Assembly (NCBI GenBank): GCA_016792625.1
Contig: JAEUKK010000027.1
Location: forward strand, 78,424-142,423
Length of the DNA stretch: 64,000 nucleotides
Origin: Deltaproteobacteria bacterium
GTDB lineage: Bacteria > Myxococcota_A > UBA796 > UBA2385
Reading direction: 5' to 3'
Shown here: piece after piece, positions 9,919 to 47,325 of the stretch
How positions within the stretch are numbered: position 1 is the stretch's first letter
Layout of the letters: every line of letters starts with the position of its first letter
Notes under the pieces: generated by a model
What the model saw: only the letters and a program-made list of their open reading frames with translations
The model's database searches: none
Told to the model about the DNA's origin: nothing
Position numbers and translations under genes: made by a program

Positions 9919-11151
9919 GTGCGCTGGCTCTCGGCCGAGCAGACCCCCTGGGGCTGCCCGGTGCTCGACGTCGGGCCGGTCACGGGCGGGGTGGAGCCGC
10001 GGCTGCGCGCGGCGGTGCAGGCCATCGCCGATGGCTGGACCGGAGAGGACGGCGCCGGCCTCGGCCCCTTGCGCCCGCCCGAGGGGCCCGCCTTGCCGGG
10101 AGAGCTGCGGCTGCCGCTGTCTTCGGCCGATCCGGCGATGACGCCGGAGGGCGCGTTGTTCCGGCCCCAGCACCCCAGCGAGCGCCACGCGCTCTACCTG
10201 CGCGATGGGTGGGTCTGGGCGCTGGACGCCCACACCCGCGCCGTGCGGGCCGCCGCGCCGGCCAGCCGCGAGGGCGCGCTGCTCGTGATCGGCCCGCTGC
10301 ACGCTGGTCTGCTCGGCCCCGCGCCGGATGGGGGCCCACCCGCCGGCCTGGACTACGCCCAGAGCGGTGACCCGGCGATGGTCTGGGCGACCTTCACCTG
10401 GCTGCTGCGCAGCCACGCCTTGGGCGAGCTGCTGCCCGCGCCCCTGCCCGCCGCCCTCGCCGAAGAGCCCCGGGCCGCCGCCCTCTGGGCCAGCGGCTGG
10501 CTGGGCCGGCGCTGCCTCGGCCTCGCCGCGGCCCCGGCCCTGCCCCCGCCGACCCGCCCGCTGCGGGTGGACGGCGCCCTGCTCTTGGCCGCCCAGCGCG
10601 GTGATCTCGCGGGGCTTCAGGCCGCTTTGGCCGCCGGCGCGGCGCCGGCCGCCCCGGGCAGCTTCTTTGGCTACACCGCGCTGCACGCCGCGGCGGCGAT
10701 GGGCGAGGCGGGCTGCGTGGGCGCCCTGCTCGCCGCCGGCGCCCCGGTCGACGCGACCGCCGACGACGGGGCGACCCCCCTGCTCGCCGCCGCGGCCCAG
10801 CACGGGCCCGACACCAGCGCCGTGGTGGGCCTGCTCATCGCGGCGGGGGCGAAGCTCGACGCCCGGCTCGGGGCCCGGGGCGAGGCGGCGGTGCACCTCG
10901 CCGCCCAGGCGGGCCGCGGGCCCGTGCTCGCCCGCCTCATCGGCGCGGGGGCCGATATACACGCCGCCACCGACGGTGGTTTCACCGCCCTGCACATGGC
11001 GGCCGAGCTGGGGCGGGCCGATTTGGTGACCCTGCTGCGGGCGGCGGGGGCCGACCCGCGGGCGGCGGCGGGCGGCCTGCGCCCGGCCGATCTGGCCGAA
11101 GCCAAGGGGCACCTGACCCTGGCCGCCGCGCTGCGGGCCGCGGGCGGCTGA
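9919..11151 (+). CDS. Ankyrin-repeat protein
   Basis: C-terminal half has at least 4 canonical ankyrin repeats (TALHAAAAMGEAGCVGALLAAGAPVDA..., TPLLAAAAQHG..., AAVHLAAQAGRGPVLARLIGAGADIHA..., FTALHMAAELGRADLVTLLRAAGADP). Starts at a GTG. Confidence 0.75.
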   Translation: MRWLSAEQTPWGCPVLDVGPVTGGVEPRLRAAVQAIADGWTGEDGAGLGPLRPPEGPALPGELRLPLSSADPAMTPEGALFRPQHPSERHALYLRDGWVWALDAHTRAVRAAAPASREGALLVIGPLHAGLLGPAPDGGPPAGLDYAQSGDPAMVWATFTWLLRSHALGELLPAPLPAALAEEPRAAALWASGWLGRRCLGLAAAPALPPPTRPLRVDGALLLAAQRGDLAGLQAALAAGAAPAAPGSFFGYTALHAAAAMGEAGCVGALLAAGAPVDATADDGATPLLAAAAQHGPDTSAVVGLLIAAGAKLDARLGARGEAAVHLAAQAGRGPVLARLIGAGADIHAATDGGFTALHMAAELGRADLVTLLRAAGADPRAAAGGLRPADLAEAKGHLTLAAALRAAGG

Positions 11152-13599: not shown

Positions 13600-15057
13600 T
13601 CAGGGCGCGAGCCACTCGAGGGTCAGCTCGTAGTCGACGCCGCCGACCGGGCCGCTCCAGGGCAGCAGGGTCAGCGTGTAGGTCGTGCCTGGCTCGAGCA
13701 CCACGCCGTAGTTGGCGATGGTGTCGAAGCGCTCGGGGTTGACGTCGCCCACGTCCCAGCCGGCGCCGAGGATGGTGCCGTCGGCCGCGTTCCAGTTCAT
13801 GTCGAGGTTGTAGGCGGTGTCGGCCCAGCTGAGCGTCGCCACCACGCCCATGCCCTCGGGCACCGAGAGGGTGAAGCTGTCGTTCTCGCCGGCCCAGCTC
13901 GGGTCGGCGGCGGGGAAGTCGACCCGGCCCCGCACGATGTCGACGAAGCCAGGGCCCGAGGCCGGGGGCAGGGCCTGGGGGCTGCCGCTGACCACGCTGT
14001 AGTTGGCGTCGACCTCGACGTTGTTGGGCTCGGTGTCGGTCTCTTCCCAGCCGACGACGATGGGCTGCACGGTGTCGACGCTGACCGTGAAGCGCGGGCG
14101 GATCTCGCGGTCGATCCACCGCAGGCGCACCTGACCCTCGACGTCGGCGTCGATCTCAACGGGCGTGCTCGAGAACATCGTGCCGGCGGTGATCCCCGCG
14201 TTGAGGTCGGGGAAGTTGCCCGCCCACACATAGGCCTTGGCCAGCTGCTCGCCCACCTCGGGCGTGTCGTCGACGCGGGTCACGGGGGTGGTGCCATAGG
14301 CCCGGAAGGGGGCCGAGCGGGTGCGTGTCGATGGGTCATCGACGAAGAGCTCGGCCGCCGCGCCGCCGAGGGGGGCGCCCCGGTCGTCGAGGGTCGCCCC
14401 GGCGTAGATGCCCGCCTTGAACCCGGCTGCGTTCGGGTCAAAGCCGTCGATCTGCAGCTCGTAGTCTGCGGCGCCCACCGTCGCGGCGCCGGCCTGCACG
14501 CCGATGAGCAGCTCGGCGCCGGCGGGCACCTCGATGGGCGCGACGAAGGCGCCGCCCGCCCCGTCGGTCGGACCCTCGAACAGCAGCGCGGGGATGCCGC
14601 TCTCGTCGAGCTGCGCCATGTCGTAGACCGAGAGCAGGTAGCGCTGGTCTTCGGGGCCAGCACCGCCGGTGTCGAGCGCGGCGGTGTCGCCCGAGGCGCC
14701 CGCCCCGGCGTCATAGAGCAGGGTCAGGTTGATCGGCCCGCTCGAGGTGGCCCGCAGCAGGTACCAGTCGGCGTCGCCGGTGGGCGTGCCGTTGGGCCGC
14801 TGGCGGAAGCAGAGGGCCCTGCCGAGCACCCGCAGGTTGGCGTAGCGCAGCTCGCCCAGATCGCTGAGCGCGCCGTTGAGCGGGTCGTCGTTGACGCCGA
14901 TGCCGGCCTCTTGCTCCGAGAAGATGACCGCGGGGATGTCGATCTGACCCTCGACCACCGTGCGGTCGACGCCCGCCTCGGGCGAGAGGCAGGCCGAGAG
15001 CAGCAGGGGGAGGAGGGCCGGCGCGCGCCAAGCCCGGCGCGGGAGGGGGCTGGACAT
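13600..15057 (-). CDS. Hypothetical lipoprotein (partner of the TonB-dependent receptor)
   Basis: ORF 13600..15114. Lipobox ALLPLLLSACLSPEAG. Begins 10 bp after the stop of the upstream TBDR gene. No recognisable catalytic motif. Confidence 0.55.
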   Translation of the reverse strand: MSSPLPRRAWRAPALLPLLLSACLSPEAGVDRTVVEGQIDIPAVIFSEQEAGIGVNDDPLNGALSDLGELRYANLRVLGRALCFRQRPNGTPTGDADWYLLRATSSGPINLTLLYDAGAGASGDTAALDTGGAGPEDQRYLLSVYDMAQLDESGIPALLFEGPTDGAGGAFVAPIEVPAGAELLIGVQAGAATVGAADYELQIDGFDPNAAGFKAGIYAGATLDDRGAPLGGAAAELFVDDPSTRTRSAPFRAYGTTPVTRVDDTPEVGEQLAKAYVWAGNFPDLNAGITAGTMFSSTPVEIDADVEGQVRLRWIDREIRPRFTVSVDTVQPIVVGWEETDTEPNNVEVDANYSVVSGSPQALPPASGPGFVDIVRGRVDFPAADPSWAGENDSFTLSVPEGMGVVATLSWADTAYNLDMNWNAADGTILGAGWDVGDVNPERFDTIANYGVVLEPGTTYTLTLLPWSGPVGGVDYELTLEWLAP

Positions 15058-15123
15058 GGGGGGCTCCGAGGCGAAGGGGGCGGGCGGGCCGACCAGGGTG
15101 CGGGGGGTGCTCATGGTGGCCTC

Positions 15124-17985
15124 TCAGAACTGACCGCGGAGGCCGAGCTGGAAGTAGCGCGGCGACTGCCGGGCGATCGGCTGGCCCTGCCAGGCGTTGC
15201 CGTCGGGGTCGAGGTAGGGGCCGCCCGCGGGGTCGTCGGCCTCGGTGGCCACGCCGGTCACCGTGCGGTCGTTAAAGACGTTGAAGCACTCGACGGTCAG
15301 CGCCCAGGCGGTGGGGCCGGCGCCAAAGCTCAGGCCGCCCTTCAGATCGGTCTGCGAGAAGGCGGGCAGGCGGTAGTCGCCGTCGATGGGCTCCTGCGCG
15401 TTGTTCCAGGCGCCGTAGTTGTCGTTCCAGTAGATGGGCCGCCAGGGGTAGCCCGAGCTGAAGTTGAAGTTCCAGCCGGCCAGCAGGCCCATGTTGGACT
15501 TGCCGACGCTCCACAGCGCGTCGTTGCGCCACGAGCCGGCGAACTTCACGTTGTGCGGCACGTCGTAGGGCATGAGGCCCACGTCGACGTTGTTCTGCTG
15601 GGGGATGTCCATGGCCGAGCTGGCGAGGCCCTGGCTCTGGTCGTCGCGCGCCCGCCCATAGGCCCGGCTGTAGGTGTAGCTGCCGAGCACACCCCAGCTG
15701 TCGCCAAACTGGCGCGAGGCGGCGACCTCCATCGAGTTGTAGCGGATGAAGGCCTCGTCGGGGGTCCGCAGGCGGAACAGCGCCTCGCCGCTGCCGTCGC
15801 GGCTGCCGATCACCTGCGTGCCGTCGGCGTTCCAGATGAGGTTGACCTCATCATCTTCGAACATGTTGCGGGTGAACTCGTGGGTGTAGTTGACGTCCAC
15901 CAGCCAGCCGCCGCCCAGATCGCGGGACACACCCACATCGAACTCGTCCGAGACGGGGGTCTGCAGGTCGGGGTGCTTGAGGAAGCTGTCGGCGAAGGCA
16001 TAGCTGGGCTCGGTCGACCAGTCGCCGGCCTGGCTGTCCCAGTTGTAGTAGCCGCCGCCGTTCAGCCCGCGGGCGAGGATGCTTGAGACCGACAAGAAGG
16101 CAGGGTCGTAGAAGCGGCCGTAGTAGGCGTGCAGGGCGGTGGTGCCCTTGCCGTCGAGGTCGGCCGCAAAACCCAGGCGCGGCGCCACGTTCACGCTCGA
16201 GTAGACCTTCTCGTCGACGTTGTTGTAAAAGGCGCTCTGGTCGAGGCGCACGCCCGGCCGCAGGGTGATGCGGGGCACGGGCTGCCAGACGTCTTGCAAA
16301 TAGACCCCGACCATGCTGCCGCGGAACTCGGCCTCGCTGTCGCTGTCGTACTTGATGAGCAGGGTGGGCTCATAGCCGGCGAGGTCTGAGGGGTCGCCGT
16401 TGTGGCTGTAGTACGGCATTCCCTGCGCGTAGCCGGGGTAGACCGTATAGGTCGAGACGAGGTCGGCCTGCACGCCCAGCTTGATCTGGTGCTCACCCAA
16501 GAAGCGCGCGAGCTGGGTGACCGAGAGGGTCAGGGCGTTGCGCTCGCGGCGGTCGATCGACGAGTCGGGGGTCATGCCGTACTGAAAGCCGTCGGCGTCA
16601 TAGGGCAAGAAGCTGTCGTAGTCCTGGGCGAAGCTGTCTTGGCACACGCCGACGTCGTTGTAGTTCTTGCAGTCCTTCCATTGCATGGGGCCGGTGATGA
16701 TGTAGCTGTGGTTGGTCGACAGCTGGGTGTCGATCACCGTGCTCGGCCCGGGCGTCCACTGGTGGCCCAGGCTGGCCAGCCAGCCGCCCTGTCGCCACCA
16801 GGTCTCTGCGTTGGGCAAGACATAGGGGTCGGCGGTCGCGTTGTCGATGTTGGTCGGGTCACCCTGGGCGTGCAGCCAGATCCGGTGGTTGGCCGAGGGC
16901 TTGTAGGTCAGCTTGCCGAAGAGGTAGCGGCTGCGCCAGTCGCGGGTCGCCAAGTCAAAGCCGGCGGGGCGGATGTCGCGGACCTCTTTGGTCATCACCG
17001 GGGTGTACAGGCTCTTGGTGAGCTGCAGGCCGGTAAAGAACCAGAGCTTGTCTTTGATGATCGGCCCGCCCACGTTGACCGCGAGCAGCTGGTCGGCGTT
17101 GTCGGGCTTGGGCACGCCCTTCTCTTCGGGCAGCGGCTGGTAGAGCTGGGTCTCGGTGCCGCTGTACAGCAGCTGCAGGTCGGCGGTGAATTTGTTGCCG
17201 CCCGAGCGGGTCACCACGTTGACCGCGCCGCCCATCGCTCGGCCATACTCGGCGTCCATGCCGCCGGTGATGACCTGGAACTCTTCGATGGCGTCATAGT
17301 TCATGTTCACAGAGAAGGTGTTGGTCACCGGGTCTGTGGTGTTCACGCCGTCGACGAAGTATTGGTTTCCAAACGAGAGGCCGCCGCGCATATTGGGGTT
17401 GCCCCCGCCGACCACGCCCGGCGCAAAACCCATCACCGACTGGTAGTCGCGGCCCGCGTTGGGGATGTCACGCAGCTGCTCGCGCGACATCACCGTGCCT
17501 GTGCGCGCGTTGGTCGCGTCGAGCGGCGGGCGCACGTCGGTGACCGTGATGGCCTCGCCGGCCTGGGCGAGGCTCAGCGGCACGTCGAGGCGGGCGGTCA
17601 GGCCCGAGCTGATGCGGGCGCGGGCCTTGGCGTCGTGGAAGCCCGGGGCCTGCACCAGCACGTCGTACTCGCCAACCGGCAGGGCCATGAAGCGGAAGTT
17701 GCCGTCGGCGTCGGCGCTGGCCTGCTTGGTGCCCTGCAGGGCGTCGGACTTGATCGTGATGAGCGCGGCGGGGACGGGCAGGCCCTCGGCGTCGCTGACC
17801 TTGCCGGCCAGCGCGCCGGTGAGCTCGACCGCGAAGGCGGGCAGGGCCGGCAGCAGGGTGAACAGGGTCAGGAGGGCCTGCAGCGACCAGCGCACGACCG
17901 GGAGGCGGCGCGCGGGCGGGGCGTGGAGTGGGCGACGGGACAAAGGGAGCTCCTCTCTCGGGCGGGCGAGCGCGGAGCCTACCAC
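15124..17985 (-). CDS. Oar-like TonB-dependent receptor (carboxypeptidase-regulatory-like N-domain, plug and beta-barrel)
   Basis: CarboxypepD_reg-like GKVSDAEGLPVPAALITIKS ... DGNFRFMALPVGEYDVLVQAPGF. Plug motifs NPNMRGG ... QYFVDGV ... DAIEEFQV ... AEYG ... GGAVNVVT. Terminal aromatic residue (...LGLRGQF). The true start is probably an internal GTG near 17898. Confidence 0.8.
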   Translation of the reverse strand: MVGSALARPREELPLSRRPLHAPPARRLPVVRWSLQALLTLFTLLPALPAFAVELTGALAGKVSDAEGLPVPAALITIKSDALQGTKQASADADGNFRFMALPVGEYDVLVQAPGFHDAKARARISSGLTARLDVPLSLAQAGEAITVTDVRPPLDATNARTGTVMSREQLRDIPNAGRDYQSVMGFAPGVVGGGNPNMRGGLSFGNQYFVDGVNTTDPVTNTFSVNMNYDAIEEFQVITGGMDAEYGRAMGGAVNVVTRSGGNKFTADLQLLYSGTETQLYQPLPEEKGVPKPDNADQLLAVNVGGPIIKDKLWFFTGLQLTKSLYTPVMTKEVRDIRPAGFDLATRDWRSRYLFGKLTYKPSANHRIWLHAQGDPTNIDNATADPYVLPNAETWWRQGGWLASLGHQWTPGPSTVIDTQLSTNHSYIITGPMQWKDCKNYNDVGVCQDSFAQDYDSFLPYDADGFQYGMTPDSSIDRRERNALTLSVTQLARFLGEHQIKLGVQADLVSTYTVYPGYAQGMPYYSHNGDPSDLAGYEPTLLIKYDSDSEAEFRGSMVGVYLQDVWQPVPRITLRPGVRLDQSAFYNNVDEKVYSSVNVAPRLGFAADLDGKGTTALHAYYGRFYDPAFLSVSSILARGLNGGGYYNWDSQAGDWSTEPSYAFADSFLKHPDLQTPVSDEFDVGVSRDLGGGWLVDVNYTHEFTRNMFEDDEVNLIWNADGTQVIGSRDGSGEALFRLRTPDEAFIRYNSMEVAASRQFGDSWGVLGSYTYSRAYGRARDDQSQGLASSAMDIPQQNNVDVGLMPYDVPHNVKFAGSWRNDALWSVGKSNMGLLAGWNFNFSSGYPWRPIYWNDNYGAWNNAQEPIDGDYRLPAFSQTDLKGGLSFGAGPTAWALTVECFNVFNDRTVTGVATEADDPAGGPYLDPDGNAWQGQPIARQSPRYFQLGLRGQF

Positions 17986-18050: not shown

Positions 18051-19412
18051 ATGTCCACCCCCCGCTCTCCCTCCCCCTGGCCCCGCGCGCACCGCGCCCT
18101 CCCCCTGCTGCTCGGCCTGCTGGGCTGCGGGGCCGAGGGTGAAAAAGACGTCAGCGGTGATGAAGACGAGCAGGTCGCCGATGGCGGCGGCGCCGCCGAC
18201 GGGGGCGCGCCGACCACCGACCTGACCTGGCACCAAGACATCGCGCCGATCTTCTCGCAGAGCTGCGAAGGTTGCCACGGCGCGACCGGGGGCGGCGGTG
18301 GGCTCGACCTGTCGACCCCCGAGCGGGCGGCCGAGTGGGCCTTGCCGATCGCCGCGGCGGTCGAGGCCCGGCGCATGCCCCCGTGGACGGCGGCCGACGA
18401 CTGCAACAGCTACCAAGGCGACTTCTCGCTGAGCGCCGAGGACCGGGCCAAGGTCGTCGAGTGGGCCCGGGCCGGCGCGCCGGCGGGCGACCCAGCGACC
18501 GCGGCCGCGCTGCCGCCGGCCTACACGCCCCCGGTGCTGGACCGGGTCGACCTGCAGCTTGAGCTGCCGGTCGAGTACACGCCTGATCCTGGCCAGCCCG
18601 ATGATTACCGCTGCTTCTTGGTGGATTGGCCCTGGGCCGAAGACGCCTGGGTGACCGGCACGCACATCCGGCCGACCAACGAGGCGATCGCCCACCACGT
18701 CATCACCTTCCTCATCCCGCCCGAAGATGTGGCCACCTACGAGGCCCTCGACGCCGCCGACGCGGCCCCCGGCTACCCCTGCTATGGCGGGCCGGGCGGC
18801 GACATCGACTCGCTGCAGACCATGCGCTGGCTGGGTGCCTGGGCGCCGGGCGGCGGCGCGGCGGTCTACCCCGAGGGCACCGGCCTGCGGGTGCGGCCGG
18901 GCAGCAAGCTCGTGCAGCAGATGCACTACAATACGCTGGGCGGGCCCGGCGCCGACCGCACCGTGATGGACTTGCGGGTCGAGACCACCCCCCAGGGCTG
19001 GGCCGACATCCAACCCTGGACGGATGTGCGCTGGGTCCTGGGCGTGGGCATGGACATCCCCGCCAACACCGAGGGGGTCAGCCACGAGTTCCGCTACCGT
19101 GCGGGCGCGGGCGATCGCTTCGCCTTCCACAACGCCGCGCTGCACATGCACACCATGGGCGTGAGCGCCAGCTTGCACGTCGAGCACGCTGATGGCAGCG
19201 AGACCTGCCTGCTGCGCGAAGACAGCTGGGACTTCAACTGGCAGCGCACCTACGCGCTGACCACGCCGGTCAACGTGACCCCGGGCGACGAGATCGTGCT
19301 GCGCTGCACCTGGGACAACGAGAGCGACCAAAACGCGGCCTGGGGCGAGGGCACCGGCGACGAGATGTGCCTCGCGACCACCTACATCACCGACAGCTGG
19401 CCCGAGGACTGA
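18051..19412 (+). CDS. Lipoprotein with a cytochrome c (CxxCH) motif fused to a copper type II ascorbate-dependent monooxygenase-like (PHM/DBH-like) domain
   Basis: Lipobox LLGLLGCGAEG. SCEGCHG carries CxxCH. PHM-like motifs are present in order: DDYRCFLVDWP ... AIAHHVITFLI (HH), LVQQMHYNTL (H), AFHNAALHMHTMGV (HxH), GTGDEMCLATTYI (Met ligand). Confidence 0.7.
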   Translation: MSTPRSPSPWPRAHRALPLLLGLLGCGAEGEKDVSGDEDEQVADGGGAADGGAPTTDLTWHQDIAPIFSQSCEGCHGATGGGGGLDLSTPERAAEWALPIAAAVEARRMPPWTAADDCNSYQGDFSLSAEDRAKVVEWARAGAPAGDPATAAALPPAYTPPVLDRVDLQLELPVEYTPDPGQPDDYRCFLVDWPWAEDAWVTGTHIRPTNEAIAHHVITFLIPPEDVATYEALDAADAAPGYPCYGGPGGDIDSLQTMRWLGAWAPGGGAAVYPEGTGLRVRPGSKLVQQMHYNTLGGPGADRTVMDLRVETTPQGWADIQPWTDVRWVLGVGMDIPANTEGVSHEFRYRAGAGDRFAFHNAALHMHTMGVSASLHVEHADGSETCLLREDSWDFNWQRTYALTTPVNVTPGDEIVLRCTWDNESDQNAAWGEGTGDEMCLATTYITDSWPED

Positions 19413-21033: not shown

Positions 21034-22239
21034 TCAGGCCGGGGGCAGCGCCGCCCAAGCAGCGGCCAGCGCGCGCCCCGGCGCGGCCAGCGCCGCGTAG
21101 GCCCGGCCCGCCGCCGAGGCCGGGGTCAACCGCAGGGCCAGCGCCCGCAGGGCCCGCAGCGGAGCGGCCTGCCAGCCGGCGATCTGGCCCACCCGCCGAG
21201 AGCGGTCGGCCACCGTGCGCGCCCGCGCCGCCCGCGCCTGCACGTAGGCGGCGTGGGCCGCGGGCAGCGCCGCCTGCCCTTCGAGGGCCAGGGCCAGGGC
21301 CATCGCGTCTTCGATCGCCATGCCCGCGCCTTGGCCGAGGTTGGGGGTCATCCCGTGGGCGGCGTCGCCGAGCAGCCAGGCCGCGCCCGCCCCCCAGGCG
21401 TGGGTTCGGTGCTCGAGCAGGTCGTGGTGCAGCAGCGGACCCGCCCGCAGCGCCGGCCAGAGCGCCGCTGCCGCACCACCAAAGGCGCCGAAGATGGCGT
21501 CGAGAGCGGTGGGATCGAGGTCGGGCAGACCAGCGGCGCGGGCCCGGGTGAGGAAGACGTAGGCCCGTGCGCCGGAGAGCGGCACCACGCCGAAGCGGCA
21601 GCCCAGGCCCCAGTGCTCGACCGCGCCCCCGCCCTCGGTCACCATCGGGGGTGCGGGTACGACCGCGCGCCAGCAGGCCTCGCCGGCGGGTCGCAGCGCC
21701 TCTTCGCCCAGCAGCTGGCGGCGCACCGCGCTGCGCAGGCCGTCGGCGCCGATGATCAGCTCGGCCCGCAGCGGCGCGTCGCCGGCGAGGCGCACCGTCG
21801 GTTTGGCCCCGAGCTCGAGCGCCTCGACCGTCGCGCCCAGCCGCAGCTCGACGGTGGGCGGCAGGGCCGCGGCCAGGGCGGCGTGCAGCTCGGCCCGGTG
21901 CAGGGTCAGGGCGGGGCCCACGGTCGGGCGCAGCGCGGCCAGGTCGAGCCGCGAGGTCAGGGTGCCGTCGGCATCGGCGGTGTCCATTCGATCAAGGAGG
22001 GCGCCCGATGGGCGCAGATCGACGCCCAGCGCGTCAATCACCGCGATGGCGTTGGCGGCGAGCACGATGCCCGCGCCCACCGGCGCGAAGCGCGGCGCCC
22101 GCTCGAGCAGGGTGACCTCGTGCCCGCGCAGCCCGAGCGCGCGGGCGGCGACGAGCCCGCCGATGCCCCCGCCGACGATGATCACGCGCCGTCGGGGCGT
22201 GGGCCCCCCGCGCGGGCCGACCAGCGCCGCGCCGCTCAT
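21034..22239 (-). CDS. FAD-dependent aromatic-ring monooxygenase (UbiH / salicylate-hydroxylase family)
   Basis: MSGAAL ... RRVIIVGGGIGGLVAARALGLRGHEVTLLER (GxGxxG plus an acidic residue), GADGLRSAVR (DG motif), LLGDAAHGMTPNLGQGAGMAIEDA (GD motif). The ORF 21034..22977 is trimmed to the ATG at 22239. Confidence 0.8.
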   Translation of the reverse strand: MSGAALVGPRGGPTPRRRVIIVGGGIGGLVAARALGLRGHEVTLLERAPRFAPVGAGIVLAANAIAVIDALGVDLRPSGALLDRMDTADADGTLTSRLDLAALRPTVGPALTLHRAELHAALAAALPPTVELRLGATVEALELGAKPTVRLAGDAPLRAELIIGADGLRSAVRRQLLGEEALRPAGEACWRAVVPAPPMVTEGGGAVEHWGLGCRFGVVPLSGARAYVFLTRARAAGLPDLDPTALDAIFGAFGGAAAALWPALRAGPLLHHDLLEHRTHAWGAGAAWLLGDAAHGMTPNLGQGAGMAIEDAMALALALEGQAALPAAHAAYVQARAARARTVADRSRRVGQIAGWQAAPLRALRALALRLTPASAAGRAYAALAAPGRALAAAWAALPPA

Positions 22240-22907
22240 GGGCGCACCGCCTGGGCCGTCGGAGTCATCGGAGCCATCGGGGCCAGCAGGCGGTCGAGGG
22301 CCGCCCGCAGCAAGGGCCCGCGCGCGCCCGGGGGCAGCTCGCCCCGCAGCCCGCCCACCAACAAGCCGAAGTAGATCGAGAAGTAGGCGGTGAAGAAGCT
22401 CATCGGGTCGATGTCGTGCGGCGCGCCGCGGGCGGCGTCTGCGGTCAGCGCGCCGCCCACCCAGGCCCGGAAGCGGTCGAGCTGCGCGCTGAGCGGGCGG
22501 CCGGGTTCGGACAAGAACAGCGTCTGGCTCAGCAAGGCGCGCGCGAGGTCGGGGCGGGCGTCGTAGGTGGACCAGAGCGCCTCGGCCACTGCCACGAGCT
22601 GGGCGGCCAGCGGGGCCGCCGGGTCGGGGGGAAGCGCGTGGTCGAGGGCCGCCTCGATCTCGTCGTGCAGCAGCGCCTCGAACAGCGCGGCTTTGTCGGG
22701 GAAGTGCGAGAAGACCGCGCCGACCGAGACCCCGGCGACGGCGGCGACCGCGCGGGTGTGCGCGCCCTCGACCCCCTGGGCTTCGATGAGGCCGCGCGCG
22801 GCGGCGAGCACCCGCGCGCGGGTCTGCGCGGCCTGCTCGGCCCGCAGGCGGGAGCGGGGCGCGGCGCCACGGCCGGCGGCTGTCGTGGGCGCTGGAGGCG
22901 AGGTCAT
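22236..22907 (-). CDS. TetR-family transcriptional regulator
   Basis: N-terminal helix-turn-helix TRARVLAAARGLIEAQGVEGAHTRAVAAVAGVSVGAVFSHFPDKAALF. Its stop overlaps the monooxygenase start (ATGA), so the two form an operon. Confidence 0.75.
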   Translation of the reverse strand: MTSPPAPTTAAGRGAAPRSRLRAEQAAQTRARVLAAARGLIEAQGVEGAHTRAVAAVAGVSVGAVFSHFPDKAALFEALLHDEIEAALDHALPPDPAAPLAAQLVAVAEALWSTYDARPDLARALLSQTLFLSEPGRPLSAQLDRFRAWVGGALTADAARGAPHDIDPMSFFTAYFSIYFGLLVGGLRGELPPGARGPLLRAALDRLLAPMAPMTPTAQAVRP

Positions 22908-22999
22908 GGCGGGGCCCCGGGTGCGGGTGGGGTGAACGAGAGATGAGCGTGCTCGGTGATCGAGCGACACTGTTCACTGAGCATGTTCATTAACCGGAC

Positions 23000-24327: not shown

Positions 24328-25161
24328 TCAGGGCTTGGGCGCGGAGAGCGAGTTGAGCTCGTCAAAGCCCGGCAGCGTCGAGAGGTCGGGCACCAGCACG
24401 ATCTCGATGCGGCGGTTGCGGGCCCGGGCGTCGACGTTGGTGTTGGGCACGGTGGGGCGGCTGTCGCCGAAGGCCGCGGCGCTCACGTTGCCTGGGGCCA
24501 TCCCGCCCTCGATCAGGGCCTTGAGCACGGTGATCGCGCGGGCGCTGCTCAGCTCCCAGTTGGAGGGGAAGGTCGCGCTTTTGATCGGCACGTCGTCGGT
24601 GTGGCCCTCGACCTGAAAGCGCCGGTCGCCCAGGGTGGCCAGGATGGCGCCGACCTCCATCACCGCCTGCTTCCCTTGGGGGGAGAGGGCCGCTTTGCCG
24701 CTGCCGAACAGGATGTCGGTGGCCATCTCGACCACGAGGCGCCCGTCGACCACCTTGACCCGCAGCTTGCCCGACTCGACCATGCCGGCGAAGCGGGCGA
24801 GAAGTGACTTGTACTCGGCGATCCGGTCGTCGGCCGCCTTCTTGCGCGCGGCCAGCTCGGCGAGGGCGCGGCTCATGTCCATCACCGAGTCGGTCAGCTG
24901 ACCCTTCTCGGACATCAGCCGGGCGACGTCTTCCCGCAGCTTGTCGGCCTCGGCGCCCAGCGTGGCCGTGCGGCGCTCTTCGGCGTCGAGTGAGGCCATC
25001 AGGGCCTCGGACTCGGCCTTGCGGTCGCGCAGCGCCTCGCGGGTCTTGTCGAGGACAGCGGCCTGCTCGTTGTACTTGCGCTTGCTAACGCAGCCGGTGC
25101 CCAGGGCGAGGGCCAGGGCCACCAGCAGCAGCGCACGGGGAGCGGAGGAGAGGAGGGGCAT
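24328..25161 (-). CDS. OmpA/MotB-family peptidoglycan-binding lipoprotein with a coiled-coil N-region
   Basis: Lipobox ALALGTGCVS. Coiled coil of about 120 aa. C-terminal OmpA domain FQVEGHTDDVPI ... NWELSSARA ... NRRIEIVL. Confidence 0.8.
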   Translation of the reverse strand: MPLLSSAPRALLLVALALALGTGCVSKRKYNEQAAVLDKTREALRDRKAESEALMASLDAEERRTATLGAEADKLREDVARLMSEKGQLTDSVMDMSRALAELAARKKAADDRIAEYKSLLARFAGMVESGKLRVKVVDGRLVVEMATDILFGSGKAALSPQGKQAVMEVGAILATLGDRRFQVEGHTDDVPIKSATFPSNWELSSARAITVLKALIEGGMAPGNVSAAAFGDSRPTVPNTNVDARARNRRIEIVLVPDLSTLPGFDELNSLSAPKP

Positions 25162-25184
25162 CGAACACCCGTGGACAGAGAGGG

Positions 25185-28100
25185 TCAGGTGGAGGTGGGC
25201 CGCTCAGAGGAAGGCGGATCAAGGGGGAGCTGCACCGCGGCCGGGTCGACCTGCTCGCCGGTCGCCTGCCCGAGCTGGCTGATCGCCTTGGCGATCCCGC
25301 GTCGCAGCTCGTCGAGGAAGGCCGCCTGCTCACCCGGCGGCAGGCGCTGGCGCACCTGCTCGGTGACCAGCGCGGCGAGGGCCTGCATGACCGGCAAGGC
25401 GCCGCTGAGCACATACTCGCCGGCCCGCAGCTGGCGCTGGGCGCCAGCCTGCATGCGCCCATAGGCCACCAAGGCGCGCTGCACCTCGGCGAGGATGGCG
25501 TGCCGCATGACCATATCGGCCTCTGCCCCCACCTCGAGGTCGGGGATGAGCCAGGGCGTCGATATGGGGGTTGTGCTTGTGTTGGCGGCAGCGGGGGCGG
25601 AAGACGGCGTGGGTACAACGCCCCGCAGCGCCTCGGCCAGGGCCTGGGGCAGGGCCCGGGCCAGGGCGGCGGCCTCAGCGCGGGCGGCGTCGAGCGCGGC
25701 GGTGAGGGGGGCCTGGGCTGCGGGGGCGGCGGCCCGCAGCGCGCCCACCTCGGCGCGCAGGGCGTCGAGGGGCGGGGTCAGCGCGGCGCCTAACGCGACG
25801 GCGGCGCGGTCGGCCCCGGGCGCGCGCAGGGCCTCGTCGATGCGGTCGAGGCTAGCCCCGAGGCCGGTCAGGGTGCCGGTGACCCGGGCGACCGGGTCTT
25901 GGTCGCTGCCGCCCATCAGCCGCTGCCGGGCGAATTCTTTGCAGATGGCGGCCCAGCGCTCTTGTTGGGCCGGCGTGGCCCGCCCGCGCAGCACGGCGAG
26001 CTTGAGCAGGTTGCTCTCGGCGCCGGTGGTCAGGGTCTGGGATTCGCCGACGTAGTGGTCGTCGACGAGGCGCTCGACCTCGTCGGGGGTCATCGCGCTG
26101 GCGATCTTTTCGCTGAGCTTGGCCATGTTGCGGTAGCTGCCCTGCAGCTTGAACGGCGGCTCGGTGCGGAATTTGTCGTCGACCCCCGCGCTGCGGATGT
26201 ACTCGGCGTTGACCTTGAGCAGGGTCTCGCGCACCCGCTCCATGCGCAGGAGCACCGCGCCGATCTCTTCTTGTTCCGCAGCCGAGGTGTCGGCGCTGAG
26301 CTTGGTCTGGTCAATCTCAACGCCGTGGGCCCGGTCGAGCAAGAAGTAGAGGTCGGCGAGAGGCCGGGCGGCGAGGGGGGCCAGCACGGGGTTGCTGGTG
26401 AGGCAGTTCTCAATGTAGGACAGGCCGAAGAGGTCTTGTCGGCCGCCGAGGATGTCGCCGAGGTTGTAGGTGTCGGCCCGGTTGGCCAACATGTCGGGGA
26501 TCTGAAAGCGGGCCCCGGTCTCGGTGTAGGGGTTCCCGGCCATGACCACGCAGAACTTCTTGCCCTTGAGATCGTAGGTGCGGCTCTTGCCCTTCCAAAT
26601 TCCTTCGACCCGACGGGTGCCGTCACAGAGCGAGATGAACTTTTGCAGCAGCTCGGGGTTGGTGTGCTGGATATCGTCGAGGTAGAGCATCACGTTCTCG
26701 CCCATCTCAAAGGCGAGGTTGATCTTCTCGACCTCTTGGCGGGCGGTCGCGTCGGGCGCCTGCTCGGGGTCGAGGCTGGTCACCGCGTGCCCGATGCTCG
26801 GGCCGTTGACCTTCATGAAAACGAGCCCCAGCACGTTGGCCACGTACTCCATGAGCGTGGTCTTGCCGTAGCCCGGCGGCGAGATGAGCAGCAGCAGGCC
26901 CATGGTGTCGGTGCGCTTGCCCGCGCCGGCCGCGCCGAGCTGCTTGGCGAGGTTGTTGCCGATGAGCGGCAGATACACCTCGTTGATCAACCGGTTGCGC
27001 ACAAATGAGGTCATCGGCTTGGGCTTGAGCTCATCGAGGCGCAGGGCCTTGCGGGCGCGCTCGACCACCCCGTGGCGGGCGGCCCGCAGCGCGGCGAAGC
27101 CGGGCACCTGCACCGCGCAGAAGCGCTCGAGGCGCGGGCCCAGCTCGTCGGCCCGCAGGCGCAGCTTCCCGCCCTGCACCCGCGCATGTTGGCCGAGCAG
27201 GCCGCTGATCTCGAGCTCGAGCGCCACCGCGCTGGGCGCCCGGTCGAGGCTGCGGTCGGTGATCAGGGCCACCGCCGCCTCGCGGGCGGCGAAGCTGTGC
27301 TCGATGAGCTTGGGGTCGCCGCCATAGCGCACCAGCGCGTCGAGCCAGCTCTCGACCAGCCCGAGGCGCGCGCCGAGATCGGCGTCGAGCGCGCGCAGGT
27401 CCTCTTCGAGGGCGGCGCGTTGGCGGGCGGCGTCGAGGCGGGCCTGCAGGGCGCTGAGCAGGGCGCTGGCGGCGGCGCTCAGCACGAAGCGGGGGCGCTC
27501 GGCGGCCAGCTCTTCGGCGAGGTAGGCCGCGGCCTCGGGCACCACCTCGGTCACCCAGGGGGTGCTGGGCAGGCGGTCGCGCGCCCAGGGGCCGATCACC
27601 CCGGCGAGGGCGGCGGTCAGGGCCCCGCGCGCCGGCGCTTGGGGGAAGGCGGCGATCAAGCGGGCGGCGGCGACGGCCTGGCGGTGCAGGGCGGCGCGCT
27701 GCTCACGGTCGCTGAGCGTGGCCCACCACAGGGCGCCCAGCGCCCGCGCGCTGGCCGAAAACCGCAGCAGGCCCACCGATCGACGCAGCCCGAGCAGCTT
27801 CTCGAGGATGGCCGCCGCGTCGGCGTCATGCACCCCCCGCTCGTAGCCCTCGTCGTAGCGGGTCGCCGCGAAGGCCCGCACCCGCTCGAGCAGGCCGCCC
27901 TCGACGAGCAGGGCCTCTTCGAGCGCGGCGACGCTGAGGCCGCCCGTGCCCGCCTCGGCCGCCCGCAGCAGGGCGTGGGCGAGGAACTCGGCGCGGTAGA
28001 CCTCGGCGTCTTCGCTGGCCACCGCCATCGACCAAAATGGCCGCGTGGACAGCAGCTCGGGGTCGGTCACCTCTTCGTAGTAGCCGGTTCCCGTGAGGTG

Positions 28101-30788
28101 CAGGGCCATACCCTCGCCGCGGGGCAGCAGGGTCAGCTCGACCGCGGCCTTGTTCACCGCGAAGCGGTGCTGGCCGAACTTGATGAGCTCGGCGCCCTCG
28201 TCGAAGAGGTCGAGCTTGTCGCGAATGACCCGCAGGGCGTTGGCCCGCACGGCGAGCAGGCGGCCAGCGAGGTCTTCGGACTTGACGCTGTCGCCGAGGG
28301 CGGCGAGCTGCTCGCTGATCTGGCGGACCTTCTGCACCATCGGGTCGCTGGCATACCAGGCAGCCAGCTCACGTTCGGCGGCAAAACCGCGGGCCCGCCG
28401 GTTGAGCCCCTCGAGGATGCGCGCCGCGGCGCTGATCAGGGCCTCGACCCGGCGCTGGCGCTCCTCGGTGAGCTGCTGGCGGCGGGCCTCAAATGCGTCG
28501 CTGACCTCTTCTCGTTTGTTGGCGATGTCAGCCAGGAAGGTGTCGAACTCGCCGAAGCGCCCCTCGAGCTCTTCGAGCTGCACCATGAGGCGGCCGCGTT
28601 GGGCGTCGCAGGCCTCGGGGGTGTCGGAGAGGCTGAGCGCGCTGCTGACCCCCTGGGCCAACAGCTTGAACTGGGCGGAGAACTCGGCCTGGGCCTCGAC
28701 CCGCCCGAGCTCACGTTTGCGGTTGTCGAGCAGGGCCCGCACCCGGTTGAGCTGGGCGAAGACCTCCGAGATGCGCTCGAGGATGGCCGTGCGCTGCACC
28801 GGGTCGCCGACCTCGAGCCCGCCGACCACCTCGGTGAGCAGGTTGAGGCCCTGGGCGGTGCGGTCGACGTCGGTGGCCACCTCTGCGCCCTCGGCGGCGC
28901 GCTTGAGCTGGGGCAGGCGGGCCTCGACGGCGCGGATCTGGTCGGTGATCCCGCTCAGGGCGGCGGGCTGCTGCAAGAAGCTGACGACCCCCACCGAGAG
29001 CGCGCCCTGGGCGGCGATGGTGGCCGCTTCGAGGGCGTCGAGGGCGGCCCGGTCGACCAAGCGCAGCTCTTTGAGGGTGATGAGCTTGCCCCTGTGCTCT
29101 CGCAGGCGGGCCATTCCGTCCATGAACGCGGGCAGGTCGGCCATGACCTCGGCGCGGCAGTCGAGCAACAGGCGGTCTTGTTCGGCGGTCGCACCTTCGA
29201 CCGCCTCTTTGGCCCGCCGCTGCAGGGCCTGCAGCTTCTCGAACTCGTCGATGATCAGCTCGGCGTTGCGCCGGGCCTGCTCGAGCCCGCGGCGGAGCTG
29301 GCCGTCGACCACCGCGCCGAGCCAGTGGAAGTGATCGATGACCCGGGTGGTCGCGCGGACCAAGTCCTCAAAAACGGGGCGGGAGGGGCTGAGGTTGCCC
29401 AGCTGGCGCGCGATGGCCAGCACCTCGCTCAGGCCGCGGACCAGATCGGCGTTCCCAATGCGGCCCAGCGGGCCGGCAGGTGCGGGCGTGTTCGCGTGGT
29501 GCTCGTCGCTGGTGAAGGGGGTCCGCCAGATTTGGAGCGGGTGCACCCGCGTCGGCTCTTCGGACTCGGCGCGGAAGATGACCAGCCGCCCGTCATCAAA
29601 GAGGCTGTAGCCGTGGCCGCCGATGGGTGTGGCGACCTCTTGCCGGATCAGGTTGTAGGGCAGGAGGACATAGACCCCCGTCTCTTCCCGGTGGAAGACA
29701 TAGAGGACGTCTTCGCCGTTGGGCGCCCGCACCATGCGCTTGAAGATGAGGCCCTCGGGCCGCTCATCGAAGATCCGAGAGACCCCCGACCGCAGGTAAT
29801 ATCCCCCGGGGAAGATGATGCCGTGGTCCTCGGGCAGCTGCACGCAGGCCTGGCCGATCGCGTCAATGCGGCGGACCTCACGGTTGCGGGTGTTGAACAA
29901 GAGGGTGCGGGTCTGCTCTTCGCCGAAGGGGCGGATACTGAGCAGCACGATGTTCCCGACCAGCGCGTACTTGATCTGCGCGTCGTCGAGGCTCTGGTGG
30001 GGGTCGTTGACCGGCTCGGCGTAGATGCCCTTGCCGGTCTTCGTGTTGTTCTCGACCTTGATGGTCAGGTCGCCGCCGATGGTCTCGACGAAGACCTTGT
30101 CGGCGATGTTGACGTGGGGGTGGTCGCCGAGCTCGTGGTCTTCGCGGGTGGTCGTGACCCAGTCGAAGTCGTGGGGCGGCGGGAAGGTGTGGTCCCGCTC
30201 GCCGCGGTTGTCGATGTAGCGCGGGCGGACGCCGGGCAGCATCTCCCAGCGGAAGACGCGCAGGTCGTCGGCCCGCTCGCCGATGCGAAAGACCGCCAGC
30301 AGCTTGTTGTCGAGCTTGCGAAGGGTGACCACCCGCGCGTCGCGGTAGTATTGGTAGAGCTCTTTAAATTGCGTGACGAAGCTCGGGTCGCTCAGCAGGC
30401 CCTCTTCGTCCTCGGCGGCGCCCAGATCCCAGCCCTCGGGCCCCTCGACGATGCGGTGCAGGCTGAACACGTCGCTGATCTGCACCTCGCGCTTGAGCGC
30501 GAAGCGCACGTTGTAGGCCAGCAGCAGCTTGCCGTTGACGTTCACGATGTTGCGCGGCACACACTTGTGCTCGGTGCGCACGCGCTCGTTGCCGATGACC
30601 ACTAGCTCTTGCCCGCCGAAGGTCTCTTTGCGCTGGGTGTTGAGCCCGTCGGCGAGCTGCAGCAGGGTCCGGGCGTCCTCTTCGAGGCGGGCACGCAGCA
30701 GGTCGTAGTTGCCGCCCTCGAGCTTCGGGGCGCCGCCCTGGGGGGCGGCGGCGGGCGCGGGTGCAGGGGGCGCGGGATCGGTGGCCAT
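25185..30788 (-). CDS. Giant (1867 aa) coiled-coil protein with a single MoxR/AAA_5-like AAA+ ATPase module; function unknown
   Basis: Uninterrupted ORF from the ATG at 30788. Walker A GLLLLISPPGYGKTTLMEY (near 26850-26880 on the minus strand). Walker B VMLYLDDIQHTNPE. FCVVMAGNPYTETG is typical of AAA_5/MoxR. Beta-rich N-terminal domain of about 480 aa; long helical/coiled-coil regions either side of the ATPase. No transmembrane segment. Confidence 0.8.
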   Translation of the reverse strand: MATDPAPPAPAPAAAPQGGAPKLEGGNYDLLRARLEEDARTLLQLADGLNTQRKETFGGQELVVIGNERVRTEHKCVPRNIVNVNGKLLLAYNVRFALKREVQISDVFSLHRIVEGPEGWDLGAAEDEEGLLSDPSFVTQFKELYQYYRDARVVTLRKLDNKLLAVFRIGERADDLRVFRWEMLPGVRPRYIDNRGERDHTFPPPHDFDWVTTTREDHELGDHPHVNIADKVFVETIGGDLTIKVENNTKTGKGIYAEPVNDPHQSLDDAQIKYALVGNIVLLSIRPFGEEQTRTLLFNTRNREVRRIDAIGQACVQLPEDHGIIFPGGYYLRSGVSRIFDERPEGLIFKRMVRAPNGEDVLYVFHREETGVYVLLPYNLIRQEVATPIGGHGYSLFDDGRLVIFRAESEEPTRVHPLQIWRTPFTSDEHHANTPAPAGPLGRIGNADLVRGLSEVLAIARQLGNLSPSRPVFEDLVRATTRVIDHFHWLGAVVDGQLRRGLEQARRNAELIIDEFEKLQALQRRAKEAVEGATAEQDRLLLDCRAEVMADLPAFMDGMARLREHRGKLITLKELRLVDRAALDALEAATIAAQGALSVGVVSFLQQPAALSGITDQIRAVEARLPQLKRAAEGAEVATDVDRTAQGLNLLTEVVGGLEVGDPVQRTAILERISEVFAQLNRVRALLDNRKRELGRVEAQAEFSAQFKLLAQGVSSALSLSDTPEACDAQRGRLMVQLEELEGRFGEFDTFLADIANKREEVSDAFEARRQQLTEERQRRVEALISAAARILEGLNRRARGFAAERELAAWYASDPMVQKVRQISEQLAALGDSVKSEDLAGRLLAVRANALRVIRDKLDLFDEGAELIKFGQHRFAVNKAAVELTLLPRGEGMALHLTGTGYYEEVTDPELLSTRPFWSMAVASEDAEVYRAEFLAHALLRAAEAGTGGLSVAALEEALLVEGGLLERVRAFAATRYDEGYERGVHDADAAAILEKLLGLRRSVGLLRFSASARALGALWWATLSDREQRAALHRQAVAAARLIAAFPQAPARGALTAALAGVIGPWARDRLPSTPWVTEVVPEAAAYLAEELAAERPRFVLSAAASALLSALQARLDAARQRAALEEDLRALDADLGARLGLVESWLDALVRYGGDPKLIEHSFAAREAAVALITDRSLDRAPSAVALELEISGLLGQHARVQGGKLRLRADELGPRLERFCAVQVPGFAALRAARHGVVERARKALRLDELKPKPMTSFVRNRLINEVYLPLIGNNLAKQLGAAGAGKRTDTMGLLLLISPPGYGKTTLMEYVANVLGLVFMKVNGPSIGHAVTSLDPEQAPDATARQEVEKINLAFEMGENVMLYLDDIQHTNPELLQKFISLCDGTRRVEGIWKGKSRTYDLKGKKFCVVMAGNPYTETGARFQIPDMLANRADTYNLGDILGGRQDLFGLSYIENCLTSNPVLAPLAARPLADLYFLLDRAHGVEIDQTKLSADTSAAEQEEIGAVLLRMERVRETLLKVNAEYIRSAGVDDKFRTEPPFKLQGSYRNMAKLSEKIASAMTPDEVERLVDDHYVGESQTLTTGAESNLLKLAVLRGRATPAQQERWAAICKEFARQRLMGGSDQDPVARVTGTLTGLGASLDRIDEALRAPGADRAAVALGAALTPPLDALRAEVGALRAAAPAAQAPLTAALDAARAEAAALARALPQALAEALRGVVPTPSSAPAAANTSTTPISTPWLIPDLEVGAEADMVMRHAILAEVQRALVAYGRMQAGAQRQLRAGEYVLSGALPVMQALAALVTEQVRQRLPPGEQAAFLDELRRGIAKAISQLGQATGEQVDPAAVQLPLDPPSSERPTST

Positions 30789-30922
30789 GGCACGCTCAAA
30801 GGCACGGGGATGGGCGCCGGCTGGCGCCGTGGGGCGCGCGGCTGCGGGGGGTCAAGCCCCCGCACGCGGGTGCGGACGCCACGGTCCGGGGTGGTCCGGC
30901 CGGGTGGGCGCCCGCGCAGACC

Positions 30923-33079: not shown

Positions 33080-33150
33080 GGCTCCTCAGGGGTACGGGGC
33101 GGTGATCGAGGCGAAGGAGAAAATAGGGGGAGGGTGGCTCGGCGCGTGAC

Positions 33151-39676: not shown

Positions 39677-39792
39677 GGAGTGCTCCGGCGGCAGTGGGGA
39701 CGCGCGGGCAACCCGCGCGAGCAGCGGCGCGATACCACGCCGATGCGCCACTGTCCTGACACCAGCCTCACATCCGGCGCCCCGGAGCCTCC

Positions 39793-46347: not shown

Positions 46348-47325
46348 TTACGTAGCCGTCGTGATCTTCGGCGCAGTTTGGGTGGAGGAGGCCGGGCCCG
46401 GGTGGAGCGCGGTCATGCCCAGCCAGACCACCGAGAGCCAGACCGCGTCGGCGAGGAGCAGGTGGACCAGCTGCGCCCAGACCGGGGCCAGCAGCGCGAG
46501 GTTGATGACACCCACAGTGATCTGGGTGAGGAAGAGGCCAAGCACCACCAGCGCCGACCGCCGCGCCGCGGCCCCGCGGCCAAAACCCACCGCCACCGCG
46601 ACCACCGCGGTGAAGCCGCCGACCAGCACCGCGCCGAGCGGATGGAAGACCCGCAGGCGGATGAGCAGGTGGGCGGTGGGGGAGAGGTCCTGCGCGATCC
46701 CCTCGGCGAGGCTGCCCGCGGGGAAGAGCGTGTCGCCGAGCGCGGTCACCGCCCCGCTGGCCCCGAGCACCAGCAAGAGGCCGAGGTTGACGGCCAGCAG
46801 CACCAAGGGAGCGCCTTGGCCCCGCAGCTGCACCGCCGGCGCGCCCGTGGCCCAGCGGGCGGCGATGAGGTTGCTGGCCAGCAGCAAGAAGGTGTTGCCC
46901 AGGTGCACGGCCATGATGACCGCCCGGCCGATGCTGTCGTCTTGGCCGACCTTCTTGAGCAGCACGATCGCCGCGCCCACCCCCGCCTCGGCCAGCATGA
47001 AGCCCATGGTCACCAGGGCTGCCCGCCGCACCCGGTGCCCGGCCGGCCAGGCGCGCCAGCCCAAGATCAGCGTGGCGAGGGTCATCAAGAGCACCACCCC
47101 GCTGGTGAGCCGGTGGGTGAGCTCGATGAGGGTCTCGACCGCCGGCGCGCGCGGCACCAGCTCGCCGTTGCACATCGGCCAGTGATCACCGCAGCCGGCG
47201 CCCGAGCCCGAGGCCCGCACAAAGGCCCCCCAGGCGATCACGAAGAAGTTGACCAGCAGGGTGGCCCAGGCGAGGCGGGCGGCGCGCTGCTGCGCAGGCG
47301 AAGCGGCGGGGTCGGCGAAGAGCAT
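46348..47325 (-). CDS. ctaA: Heme A synthase (CtaA/COX15 family)
   Basis: GAFVRASGSGAGCGDHWPMCNG plus multiple TM helices and conserved His residues. The ORF 46348..48156 is trimmed to the ATG at 47325. Confidence 0.8.
   Translation of the reverse strand: MLFADPAASPAQQRAARLAWATLLVNFFVIAWGAFVRASGSGAGCGDHWPMCNGELVPRAPAVETLIELTHRLTSGVVLLMTLATLILGWRAWPAGHRVRRAALVTMGFMLAEAGVGAAIVLLKKVGQDDSIGRAVIMAVHLGNTFLLLASNLIAARWATGAPAVQLRGQGAPLVLLAVNLGLLLVLGASGAVTALGDTLFPAGSLAEGIAQDLSPTAHLLIRLRVFHPLGAVLVGGFTAVVAVAVGFGRGAAARRSALVVLGLFLTQITVGVINLALLAPVWAQLVHLLLADAVWLSVVWLGMTALHPGPASSTQTAPKITTAT

Follow-up and report, generated by a model that had tools for sequence, protein, structure and literature searches.

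A predicted bacterial lipoprotein joining a c-type cytochrome domain to a PHM/DBH-type copper core

The gene at positions 18051–19412 (+) of a 64,000-nucleotide stretch of contig JAEUKK010000027.1 (Deltaproteobacteria bacterium, assembly GCA_016792625.1; the whole stretch is called the window below) encoded a protein in which a monoheme cytochrome c domain was predicted to precede a two-copper core of the type found in PHM (peptidylglycine alpha-hydroxylating monooxygenase) and DBH (dopamine beta-hydroxylase), the animal enzymes behind amidated hormones and noradrenaline, respectively. The protein is probably, though by no means certainly, a Sec-exported, lipid-anchored envelope enzyme composed of the tethered cytochrome and the copper core. 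The overall architecture, a cytochrome c and a PHM/DBH core on a lipoprotein, had been claimed by a first-pass annotation of the DNA and was confirmed. All of the motifs named there were present and in the order given, and the sequence reads in turn LLG-C26, S-C72-E-G-C75-H76, M109-P-P-W, Y186-R-C188, A-H215-H216-V-I-T-F, Q290-M-H292-Y, H365-M-H367, and D-E438-M439-C440. The gene and its parts were located as follows.

18051–19412, + strand: complete gene of the lipoprotein cytochrome c–PHM/DBH-like copper protein, 453 residues plus stop, ATG start (list of open reading frames, ORFs)
18051–18128, + strand: putative signal peptide with the lipobox L-L-G-C26, C26 being the lipid-anchor cysteine (sequence MSTPRSPSPWPRAHRALPLLLGLLGC; pattern match only)
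18129–18218, + strand: acidic, glycine-rich and probably disordered tether, residues 27–56 (low predicted local distance difference test score, pLDDT, and sequence divergence)
18219–18485, + strand: predicted monoheme cytochrome c domain, residues 57–145 (profile, model and conserved heme residues)
18264–18278, + strand: heme c attachment motif C72-E-G-C75-H76 (translation; 55/55 and 254–255/257 homologues)
18375–18383, + strand: M109-P-P, with the methionine as predicted distal (sixth) heme ligand (invariant in 257/257)
18402–18404, + strand: C118, nine residues after the heme methionine, predicted to pair with C386 in a family-specific disulfide between domains (covariation)
18537–18959, + strand: N-terminal beta-sandwich, the predicted CuH domain, residues 163–303, with H215 and H216 (18693–18698), H292 (18924–18926), Y186-x-C188 and Q290 (PF01082 and PHM alignment)
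18960–19391, + strand: C-terminal beta-sandwich, the predicted CuM domain, residues 304–447, with H365 and H367 (19143–19151) and M439 (19365–19367) (PF03712 and PHM alignment)
19206–19208, + strand: C386, within one strand of the C-terminal sandwich and predicted to form the disulfide with C118 (covariation)

The copper core was assigned by profile searches, pairwise alignment and structural modelling. Cu2_monoox_C (PF03712) matched the protein at 6.9e-13 (48.8 bits against a cut-off of 23) and matched all 55 aligned relatives, and Cu2_monooxygen (PF01082) matched 54 of the 55 relatives at E ≤ 0.01, with a best value of 4.4e-10. In a phmmer search of the PDB, residues 163–441 were matched to human DBH (2.7e-6) and to rat PHM (4e-5 to 1e-4), and the family profile matched PHM at 9.3e-16 across both PHM domains with the same ligand register. 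Residue numbers of PHM were derived through a chain offset of 44 in the phmmer alignment. The CuH ligands H107, H108, and H172 of PHM corresponded to H215, H216, and H292, and the CuM ligands H242, H244, and M314 corresponded to H365, H367, and M439, respectively. All six were in register in both the phmmer and the family-profile alignments; a failure of the His/Met ligands to align with the PHM sites, which the first-pass annotation had named as what would speak against its reading, was not seen. The CuH ligands were invariant in the 55 closer relatives and present in 253–256 of 257 sequences in the wider set, and the CuM ligands were likewise invariant in the closer set and present in 254–255 of the 257. 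The second-sphere residues Y79, Q170, and E313 of PHM corresponded to Y186, Q290, and E438, which were invariant or nearly so in the family. Two of the PHM disulfides, C81–C126 and C293–C315, aligned to C188–C244 and C419–C440, respectively.

The AlphaFold2 model of the whole chain, built on the 55-sequence alignment, had a pLDDT of 88.5 and a predicted template-modelling score (pTM) of 0.82. Residues 1–46, with a pLDDT below 50, were its only disordered part. The double beta-sandwich of the model matched DBH (4.3e-15) and about 30 PHM structures (2e-14 to 3e-11) in Foldseek, with TM-scores normalised to target length of 0.67–0.69 over about 300 columns. The next matches were PNGase F and viral capsids, which are known distant double-jelly-roll relatives, and PHM has been described as the eukaryotic branch of a PHM/PNGase F clan (PMC8812541). 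Alignments and model together argue that the core has complete CuH and CuM sites of the PHM/DBH type, and copper binding is predicted.

The N-terminal SCEGCH site reported ahead of the copper motifs was present as C72-x-x-C75-H76. It was located 46 residues downstream of the lipobox residue C26, inside a helical domain with pLDDT values of 78–97, so that the other point named by the first-pass annotation as speaking against its reading, a CxxCH within the signal or anchor region, was not borne out. Cytochrome_CBB3 (PF13442) matched 41 of the 55 relatives. The heme-domain profile matched QcrC, the cytochrome c subunit of actinobacterial bc1 complexes, at 2e-4, with CxxCH in register and the invariant R-M109-P-P of the family on G-R-M-P of QcrC; PccH and CcoP were also matched, and the cytochrome subunit of fructose dehydrogenase was among the weak matches. 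Crossing N- and C-terminal helices are a hallmark of class I cytochromes c. When residue couplings were computed by mean-field direct coupling analysis (DCA; effective sequence number 231), the strongest couplings inside the heme domain, 64–134, 97–143, and 101–140, joined the N- to the C-terminal helix. The heme is predicted to be attached at C72 and C75, with His76 as the proximal and Met109 as the distal ligand. Planctomycete cytochrome C (PSCyt1, PF07635) was considered as an assignment and rejected, with an E-value of 0.099 and 13.7 bits against a cut-off of 22 over residues 72–95 only.

The lipoprotein assignment of the first-pass annotation also held. The lipobox pattern [LVI][ASTVIL][GAS]C was matched by LLG-C26 after a basic n-region and a hydrophobic core, and a cysteine occupied this alignment column in 54 of the 55 closer and 242 of the 257 wider homologues. 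The protein is thus predicted to be made as an exported, lipoprotein-type precursor. Attachment of heme to CxxCH takes place in the periplasm, and the lipoprotein signal, the CxxCH motif with its need for periplasmic heme attachment, and the conserved disulfide cysteine pairs are mutually consistent with export.

Long spurious ORFs are frequent in DNA as GC-rich as the window (G+C about 74%), and a 603-residue antisense ORF overlapped the gene in the ORF list. GGAG was located 7 nucleotides 5′ of the ATG. The third-position G+C of the frame was 0.91, as in real genes, and homologues spanned from 91% to about 35% identity; the exact protein had no entry in the contig index. When the gene was compared with its 91%-identical homologue (locus L082), the ratio of nonsynonymous to synonymous substitution rates (dN/dS) was 0.146, and 17 of the 40 amino acid differences fell within residues 1–53, the signal peptide and linker. 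Because of the third-position composition and the dN/dS value, the frame is regarded as a genuine gene that evolves under purifying selection. Its surroundings contained no sites resembling sigma-70 promoters or intrinsic terminators, which is uninformative at 74% GC, and no second paralogue or other CxxCH protein was found within the window.

The combination of cytochrome c and copper core appears to be a trait of the whole family. The four heme residues and the six copper ligands were retained together in 249 of 257 near-full-length homologues, and the ten were invariant in all 55 closer relatives; among the best 120 matches, every full-length sequence had a single CxxCH, MPP, HH, and HxH. 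When 1.84 billion cluster representatives (50% identity) were scanned exhaustively with HMMER, 1,343 clusters matched at E < 1e-30, and the number rose to 4,787 with a threshold of E < 1e-10. In species-representative genomes, at least 580 loci encoded relatives, overwhelmingly in Myxococcota. Cultured carriers included Sorangium cellulosum So ce56, Nannocystis exedens, Archangium gephyra, Enhygromyxa salina, and Pyxidicoccus, and a minority of carriers belonged to Bradymonadia, Oligoflexus, and Gammaproteobacteria (Halioglobus, Haliea, Woeseiaceae). Members were named "hypothetical protein", "monooxygenase", "cytochrome c family protein", or "mono/diheme cytochrome c family protein" in the databases, and no curated NCBIfam model covered the cytochrome–PHM family. 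The architecture is nevertheless already detectable through standard domain annotation. Full-text searches of the literature turned up no paper on PHM/DBH homologues from bacteria or on a cytochrome c fusion, in agreement with the earlier remark that bacterial members are largely uncharacterised.

Copy number and domain content varied within the family. Three tandem paralogues were encoded on one contig (L066, 1123–5911, +), and two separate loci occurred in several assemblies (L012/L027, L020/L038, L056/L080, and L002/L043). Gammaproteobacterial, Halioglobus/Haliea-like stop-to-stop ORFs of about 845 codons (L069, 7842–10370; L075, 7821–10361; L079, 7938–10475; all +) had a C-terminal extension of about 280 residues without a Pfam match. 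In L075, a gene for a TlpA/redoxin-type thioredoxin (10328–10876) lay directly downstream, and similar ORFs clustered in four loci. Occasional fusions carried a C-terminal beta-propeller or an N-terminal MopE-type metal motif (P0189). The latter motif was also seen elsewhere in the window, where an 819-residue protein (37730–40186, −) contained six MopE-type putative copper/metal-binding repeats (PF11617, 5e-51).

Several copper ligands were lost in P0212, P0221, P0252, and also P0140 (where HHHHHM had become, for example, RRAQRM or HNNRLL), with CxxCH and the heme methionine kept, and these may be degenerate or repurposed copies. Such losses in P0212, P0221, and P0252 next to an intact heme site, and the metal-binding motif of P0189, would suit a heme- and copper-binding or carrier protein that has retained no more than the PHM fold and serves, for instance, in the handling or sensing of copper. 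The retention of both complete copper sites in 249 of 257 members together with the second-sphere residues, and the purifying selection on the gene, speak against such a non-catalytic role, which is considered extremely improbable.

The cytochrome domain is most probably docked in a fixed position on the CuM domain, close to the interdomain hinge, and is neither loosely tethered nor obviously beside CuH. Residues C118 and C386 were without a cysteine counterpart in the PHM alignment. Both were cysteine in 232 of the 257 sequences and neither in 25, and no sequence had a single one of them; a C118–C386 disulfide is proposed because the two were always present or absent together. DCA ranked the 118–386 coupling seventh. 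Couplings ranked below about 70 looked noisy and were left out of the interpretation. Of the 70 highest-ranked long-range couplings, nine joined the cytochrome to the C-terminal (CuM) domain (119–385, 114–399, 120–404, 103–403, 131–377, 119–403, 70–387, 113–390, and 118–386) and one joined it to the N-terminal (CuH) domain (binomial p 0.009). The coupled residues 70 and 103, 113, and 114 flank both heme-ligand segments. Weaker couplings, 68/71–310 and 103–172, connected the cytochrome with the interdomain linker and the first strand of the N-terminal domain. The proposed position rests on the co-occurrence of the two cysteines and on these couplings, and the whole-chain pTM is in line with it.

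When the protein was compared with PHM, the catalytic core of PAM (PDB codes 1PHM, 1OPM, and 1SDW), the two beta-sandwiches, the His3 site of CuH and the His2Met site of CuM were shared in the same register, and the equivalents of Q170, Y79, and E313 and two of the disulfides were kept. However, the identity was about 21%, and the protein differed from PHM in its N-terminal c-type cytochrome, pinned by the predicted extra cysteine pair. PHM is a secretory-granule enzyme supplied by ascorbate, whereas the present protein is a predicted lipoprotein of the Gram-negative envelope with a presumed heme donor. The substrate contacts of PHM were replaced: R240 aligned to A363 (A, S, G, N, or T across the family), N316 aligned to L441 (Leu in all 55 closer relatives and in 201 of the 257 sequences, the rest mostly aliphatic), and Y318 aligned to a variable position (T, V, I, or G).

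Although PHM was the best profile match and all metal ligands aligned, the protein is very unlikely to be a genuine peptidylglycine alpha-hydroxylating monooxygenase of bacteria, acting in the amidation of secreted peptides. Where PHM contacts the carboxylate of the glycine and the backbone of the peptide, small or hydrophobic residues are found here, and a peptidyl-glycine hydroxylase was rejected for this reason. In addition, no conserved nearby gene for a peptidyl-alpha-hydroxyglycine alpha-amidating lyase (PAL) or a precursor peptide was found at the loci compared, and the protein itself lacked a PAL partner. Peptidyl-Gly, proposed earlier as a screening substrate, is therefore not a promising one.

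DBH (PDB code 4ZEL), of the group that also contains tyramine beta-monooxygenase (TBM) and MOXD1, was the best match in both the single-sequence and the Foldseek searches and shares the same copper core. An accessory domain precedes the catalytic core in both proteins. In DBH this is a DOMON domain without a c-type heme site, whereas here it is a c-type cytochrome; no DOMON domain was matched by Pfam in the 453-residue protein at E ≤ 10, and the dimerisation domain of DBH was absent. By its PF03712 match, its copper ligands and its fold the protein belongs to the superfamily, but it has neither the substrate triad of PHM proper nor the DOMON domain of the DBH subfamily. The c-type cytochrome fusion and the predicted lipid anchor and extra disulfide define a distinct bacterial variant.

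Ascorbate is regenerated for the eukaryotic PHM/DBH enzymes through cytochrome b561. By analogy with PHM/DBH chemistry, the best mechanism we can infer for the envelope enzyme is delivery of electrons from heme to copper in place of ascorbate. The heme would take single electrons from periplasmic respiratory carriers and would pass them to the coppers, in the role that ascorbate has for the eukaryotic enzymes. Reduced CuM would bind O2, and a cupric-superoxo species would abstract a hydrogen from a C–H bond of the substrate. A second electron would then cross the cleft from CuH, and the substrate would be hydroxylated. Heme domains that feed a mononuclear copper outside the cytoplasm are known from cytochrome c-fused copper nitrite reductases and from the cytochrome domain of cellobiose dehydrogenase, which serves lytic polysaccharide monooxygenases (LPMOs). 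These systems, however, have unrelated copper folds (cupredoxin and LPMO) and other chemistry, without sequence relationship to the present protein. The cytochromes comparable to the heme domain, PccH (4RLR), FoxE (5MAB), the YhjA cytochrome domain (9QDT), and QcrC, either act as free-standing carriers or belong to a respiratory or peroxidase complex, whereas the cytochrome here is fused to a copper core.

The same combination of domains might instead reduce a small molecule, O2, peroxide or superoxide, or nitrite, without hydroxylation of an organic substrate and in a detoxifying or respiratory role, like the cytochrome c-fused copper nitrite reductases. A heme donor and a copper site in a periplasmic protein encoded by a stand-alone gene would suit such a self-contained redox enzyme, residues that bind an organic substrate were not recognisable in the alignments, and the structures 3mib, 3mlk, and 3mll show nitrite and azide bound to the copper of PHM. 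This function is considered unlikely. The full catalytic apparatus of PHM was kept, including the CuM methionine and residues Y186, Q290, and E438, and the genomes with two loci and the contig with three tandem copies are more typical of substrate-diversified enzymes. Nitrite reductases and oxidases, moreover, use cupredoxin folds.

Electrons could also flow in the reverse direction, from a substrate oxidised at the copper core through the heme to the respiratory chain, as in a dehydrogenase or oxidase. Fusions of a cytochrome c domain with a periplasmic dehydrogenase are frequent, and the nearest structural relatives of the heme domain include PccH and FoxE, a putative iron oxidase. The conserved His3 and His2Met mononuclear sites, however, are those of an O2-activating monooxygenase, and we know of no PHM/DBH family member that runs in this direction, which makes reversed flow quite improbable. 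The conservation pattern favours none of the four rival functions, from carrier protein to reversed flow.

Several points weigh against a heme-driven copper monooxygenase. Of the profiles suggested by the first-pass annotation, only PF03712 exceeded its cut-off on the protein itself: PF01082 scored 6e-4 (20.4 bits against a cut-off of 30), below its gathering score, and PF13442 scored 8.7e-5, just below its gathering cut-off. The isolated heme-domain model, with a pLDDT of 86.8, had no significant Foldseek match. The 25 sequences that lack both C118 and C386 may form one clade, and would then count as one evolutionary event, and the docking couplings come from sequences with an effective number of about 231. 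The electron route is uncertain because the cytochrome seems to be docked at the CuM domain, yet CuH is the electron-storage site in PHM. His/Met c-type hemes are often of high potential and could be poor reductants of CuM. Finally, the absence of a conserved neighbouring gene leaves no pathway support, and no biochemical data for any family member were found in the literature.

A more far-reaching proposal is offered as speculation that is more doubtful than the assignment as an envelope enzyme. The family may represent a widespread, self-sufficient C–H hydroxylase of the Myxococcota envelope that is powered by the respiratory chain, and the first natural instance in which a c-type heme is connected with a copper monooxygenase of the non-coupled binuclear kind. 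Electrons might then enter from the side that is "wrong" in the PHM scheme, that of CuM, and the substrate might be a non-peptide compound derived from the envelope, from prey, or from a signal.

Reference systems are provided by PHM, DBH, and TBM both for long-range electron transfer from copper to copper and for C–H activation by a cupric-superoxo species. To our knowledge, all members that have been studied are eukaryotic, ascorbate-dependent, and hard to produce. A bacterial family with its own spectroscopically visible donor could be a tractable model for this much-debated copper mechanism, since the heme might report electron entry and inter-copper transfer optically. It would also test whether the dependence on ascorbate is intrinsic to PHM/DBH chemistry. 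If the proposed mechanism is true, the family points to an undescribed hydroxylation in the envelope of the predatory, metabolite-rich Myxococcota, in hundreds of species.

The gene was flanked upstream by a divergent gene at a distance of 65 bp.

15124–17985, − strand: TonB-dependent-receptor-like outer membrane protein (Oar-like), 953 residues, with CarboxypepD_reg, Plug, and OMP_b-brl_4 domains (Pfam)

This receptor was followed by a predicted 504-residue lipoprotein without a Pfam match, and the pair spanned 13600–17985 (−). Genes for a TPR protein, a FAD monooxygenase, and a TetR regulator were located downstream of the copper-protein gene. The receptor/lipoprotein pair, together with S4 and GFO_IDH_MocA genes, was kept beside the 91% (L082) and 73% (L081) homologues, which is ordinary synteny. 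The four loci of 54–57% homologues all had different neighbours, and the receptor was absent from them. When six neighbours from the window were searched by tblastn against 80 genome loci, none was found, and in an all-versus-all clustering of flanking ORFs no family occurred in more than 17 of 82 loci, the one at that number lying at scattered positions. An operon-level functional link to the receptor and the 504-residue lipoprotein was rejected, since these neighbours were kept only at the 91% and 73% loci. Because no neighbour family was conserved across loci, the gene is regarded as a stand-alone unit. The contig of the 73% homologue, syntenic with the window, also encoded a flagellin (L081, 16924–18312, −; Flagellin_N/Flagellin_C), which would be unusual if the organism were a classical myxobacterium.

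The FAD monooxygenase was listed as an ORF of 647 residues (21034–22977, −) with its FAD-binding domain only from residue 264, and the N-terminal part overlapped the TetR gene (22236–22970) in another frame. Its true start is probably near 22200, with the long ORF as a high-GC artefact. A run of three genes at 24331–33085 (−) encoded a 720-residue protein without a Pfam match, a 1,888-residue protein with DUF3686 ("ATPase involved in DNA repair", 9e-195), DUF7902, and AAA domains, and an OmpA-family protein. A 977-residue protein with DUF1521 and eCIS_core domains was encoded at 47186–50116 (+). A 1,079-residue secreted-type protein (54790–58026, +) combined a glucose/sorbosone dehydrogenase (GSDH) beta-propeller with PKD, Ig-like, and CBM2 cellulose-binding domains, and a D12-class adenine methyltransferase was encoded just upstream of it on the other strand (53834–54799).

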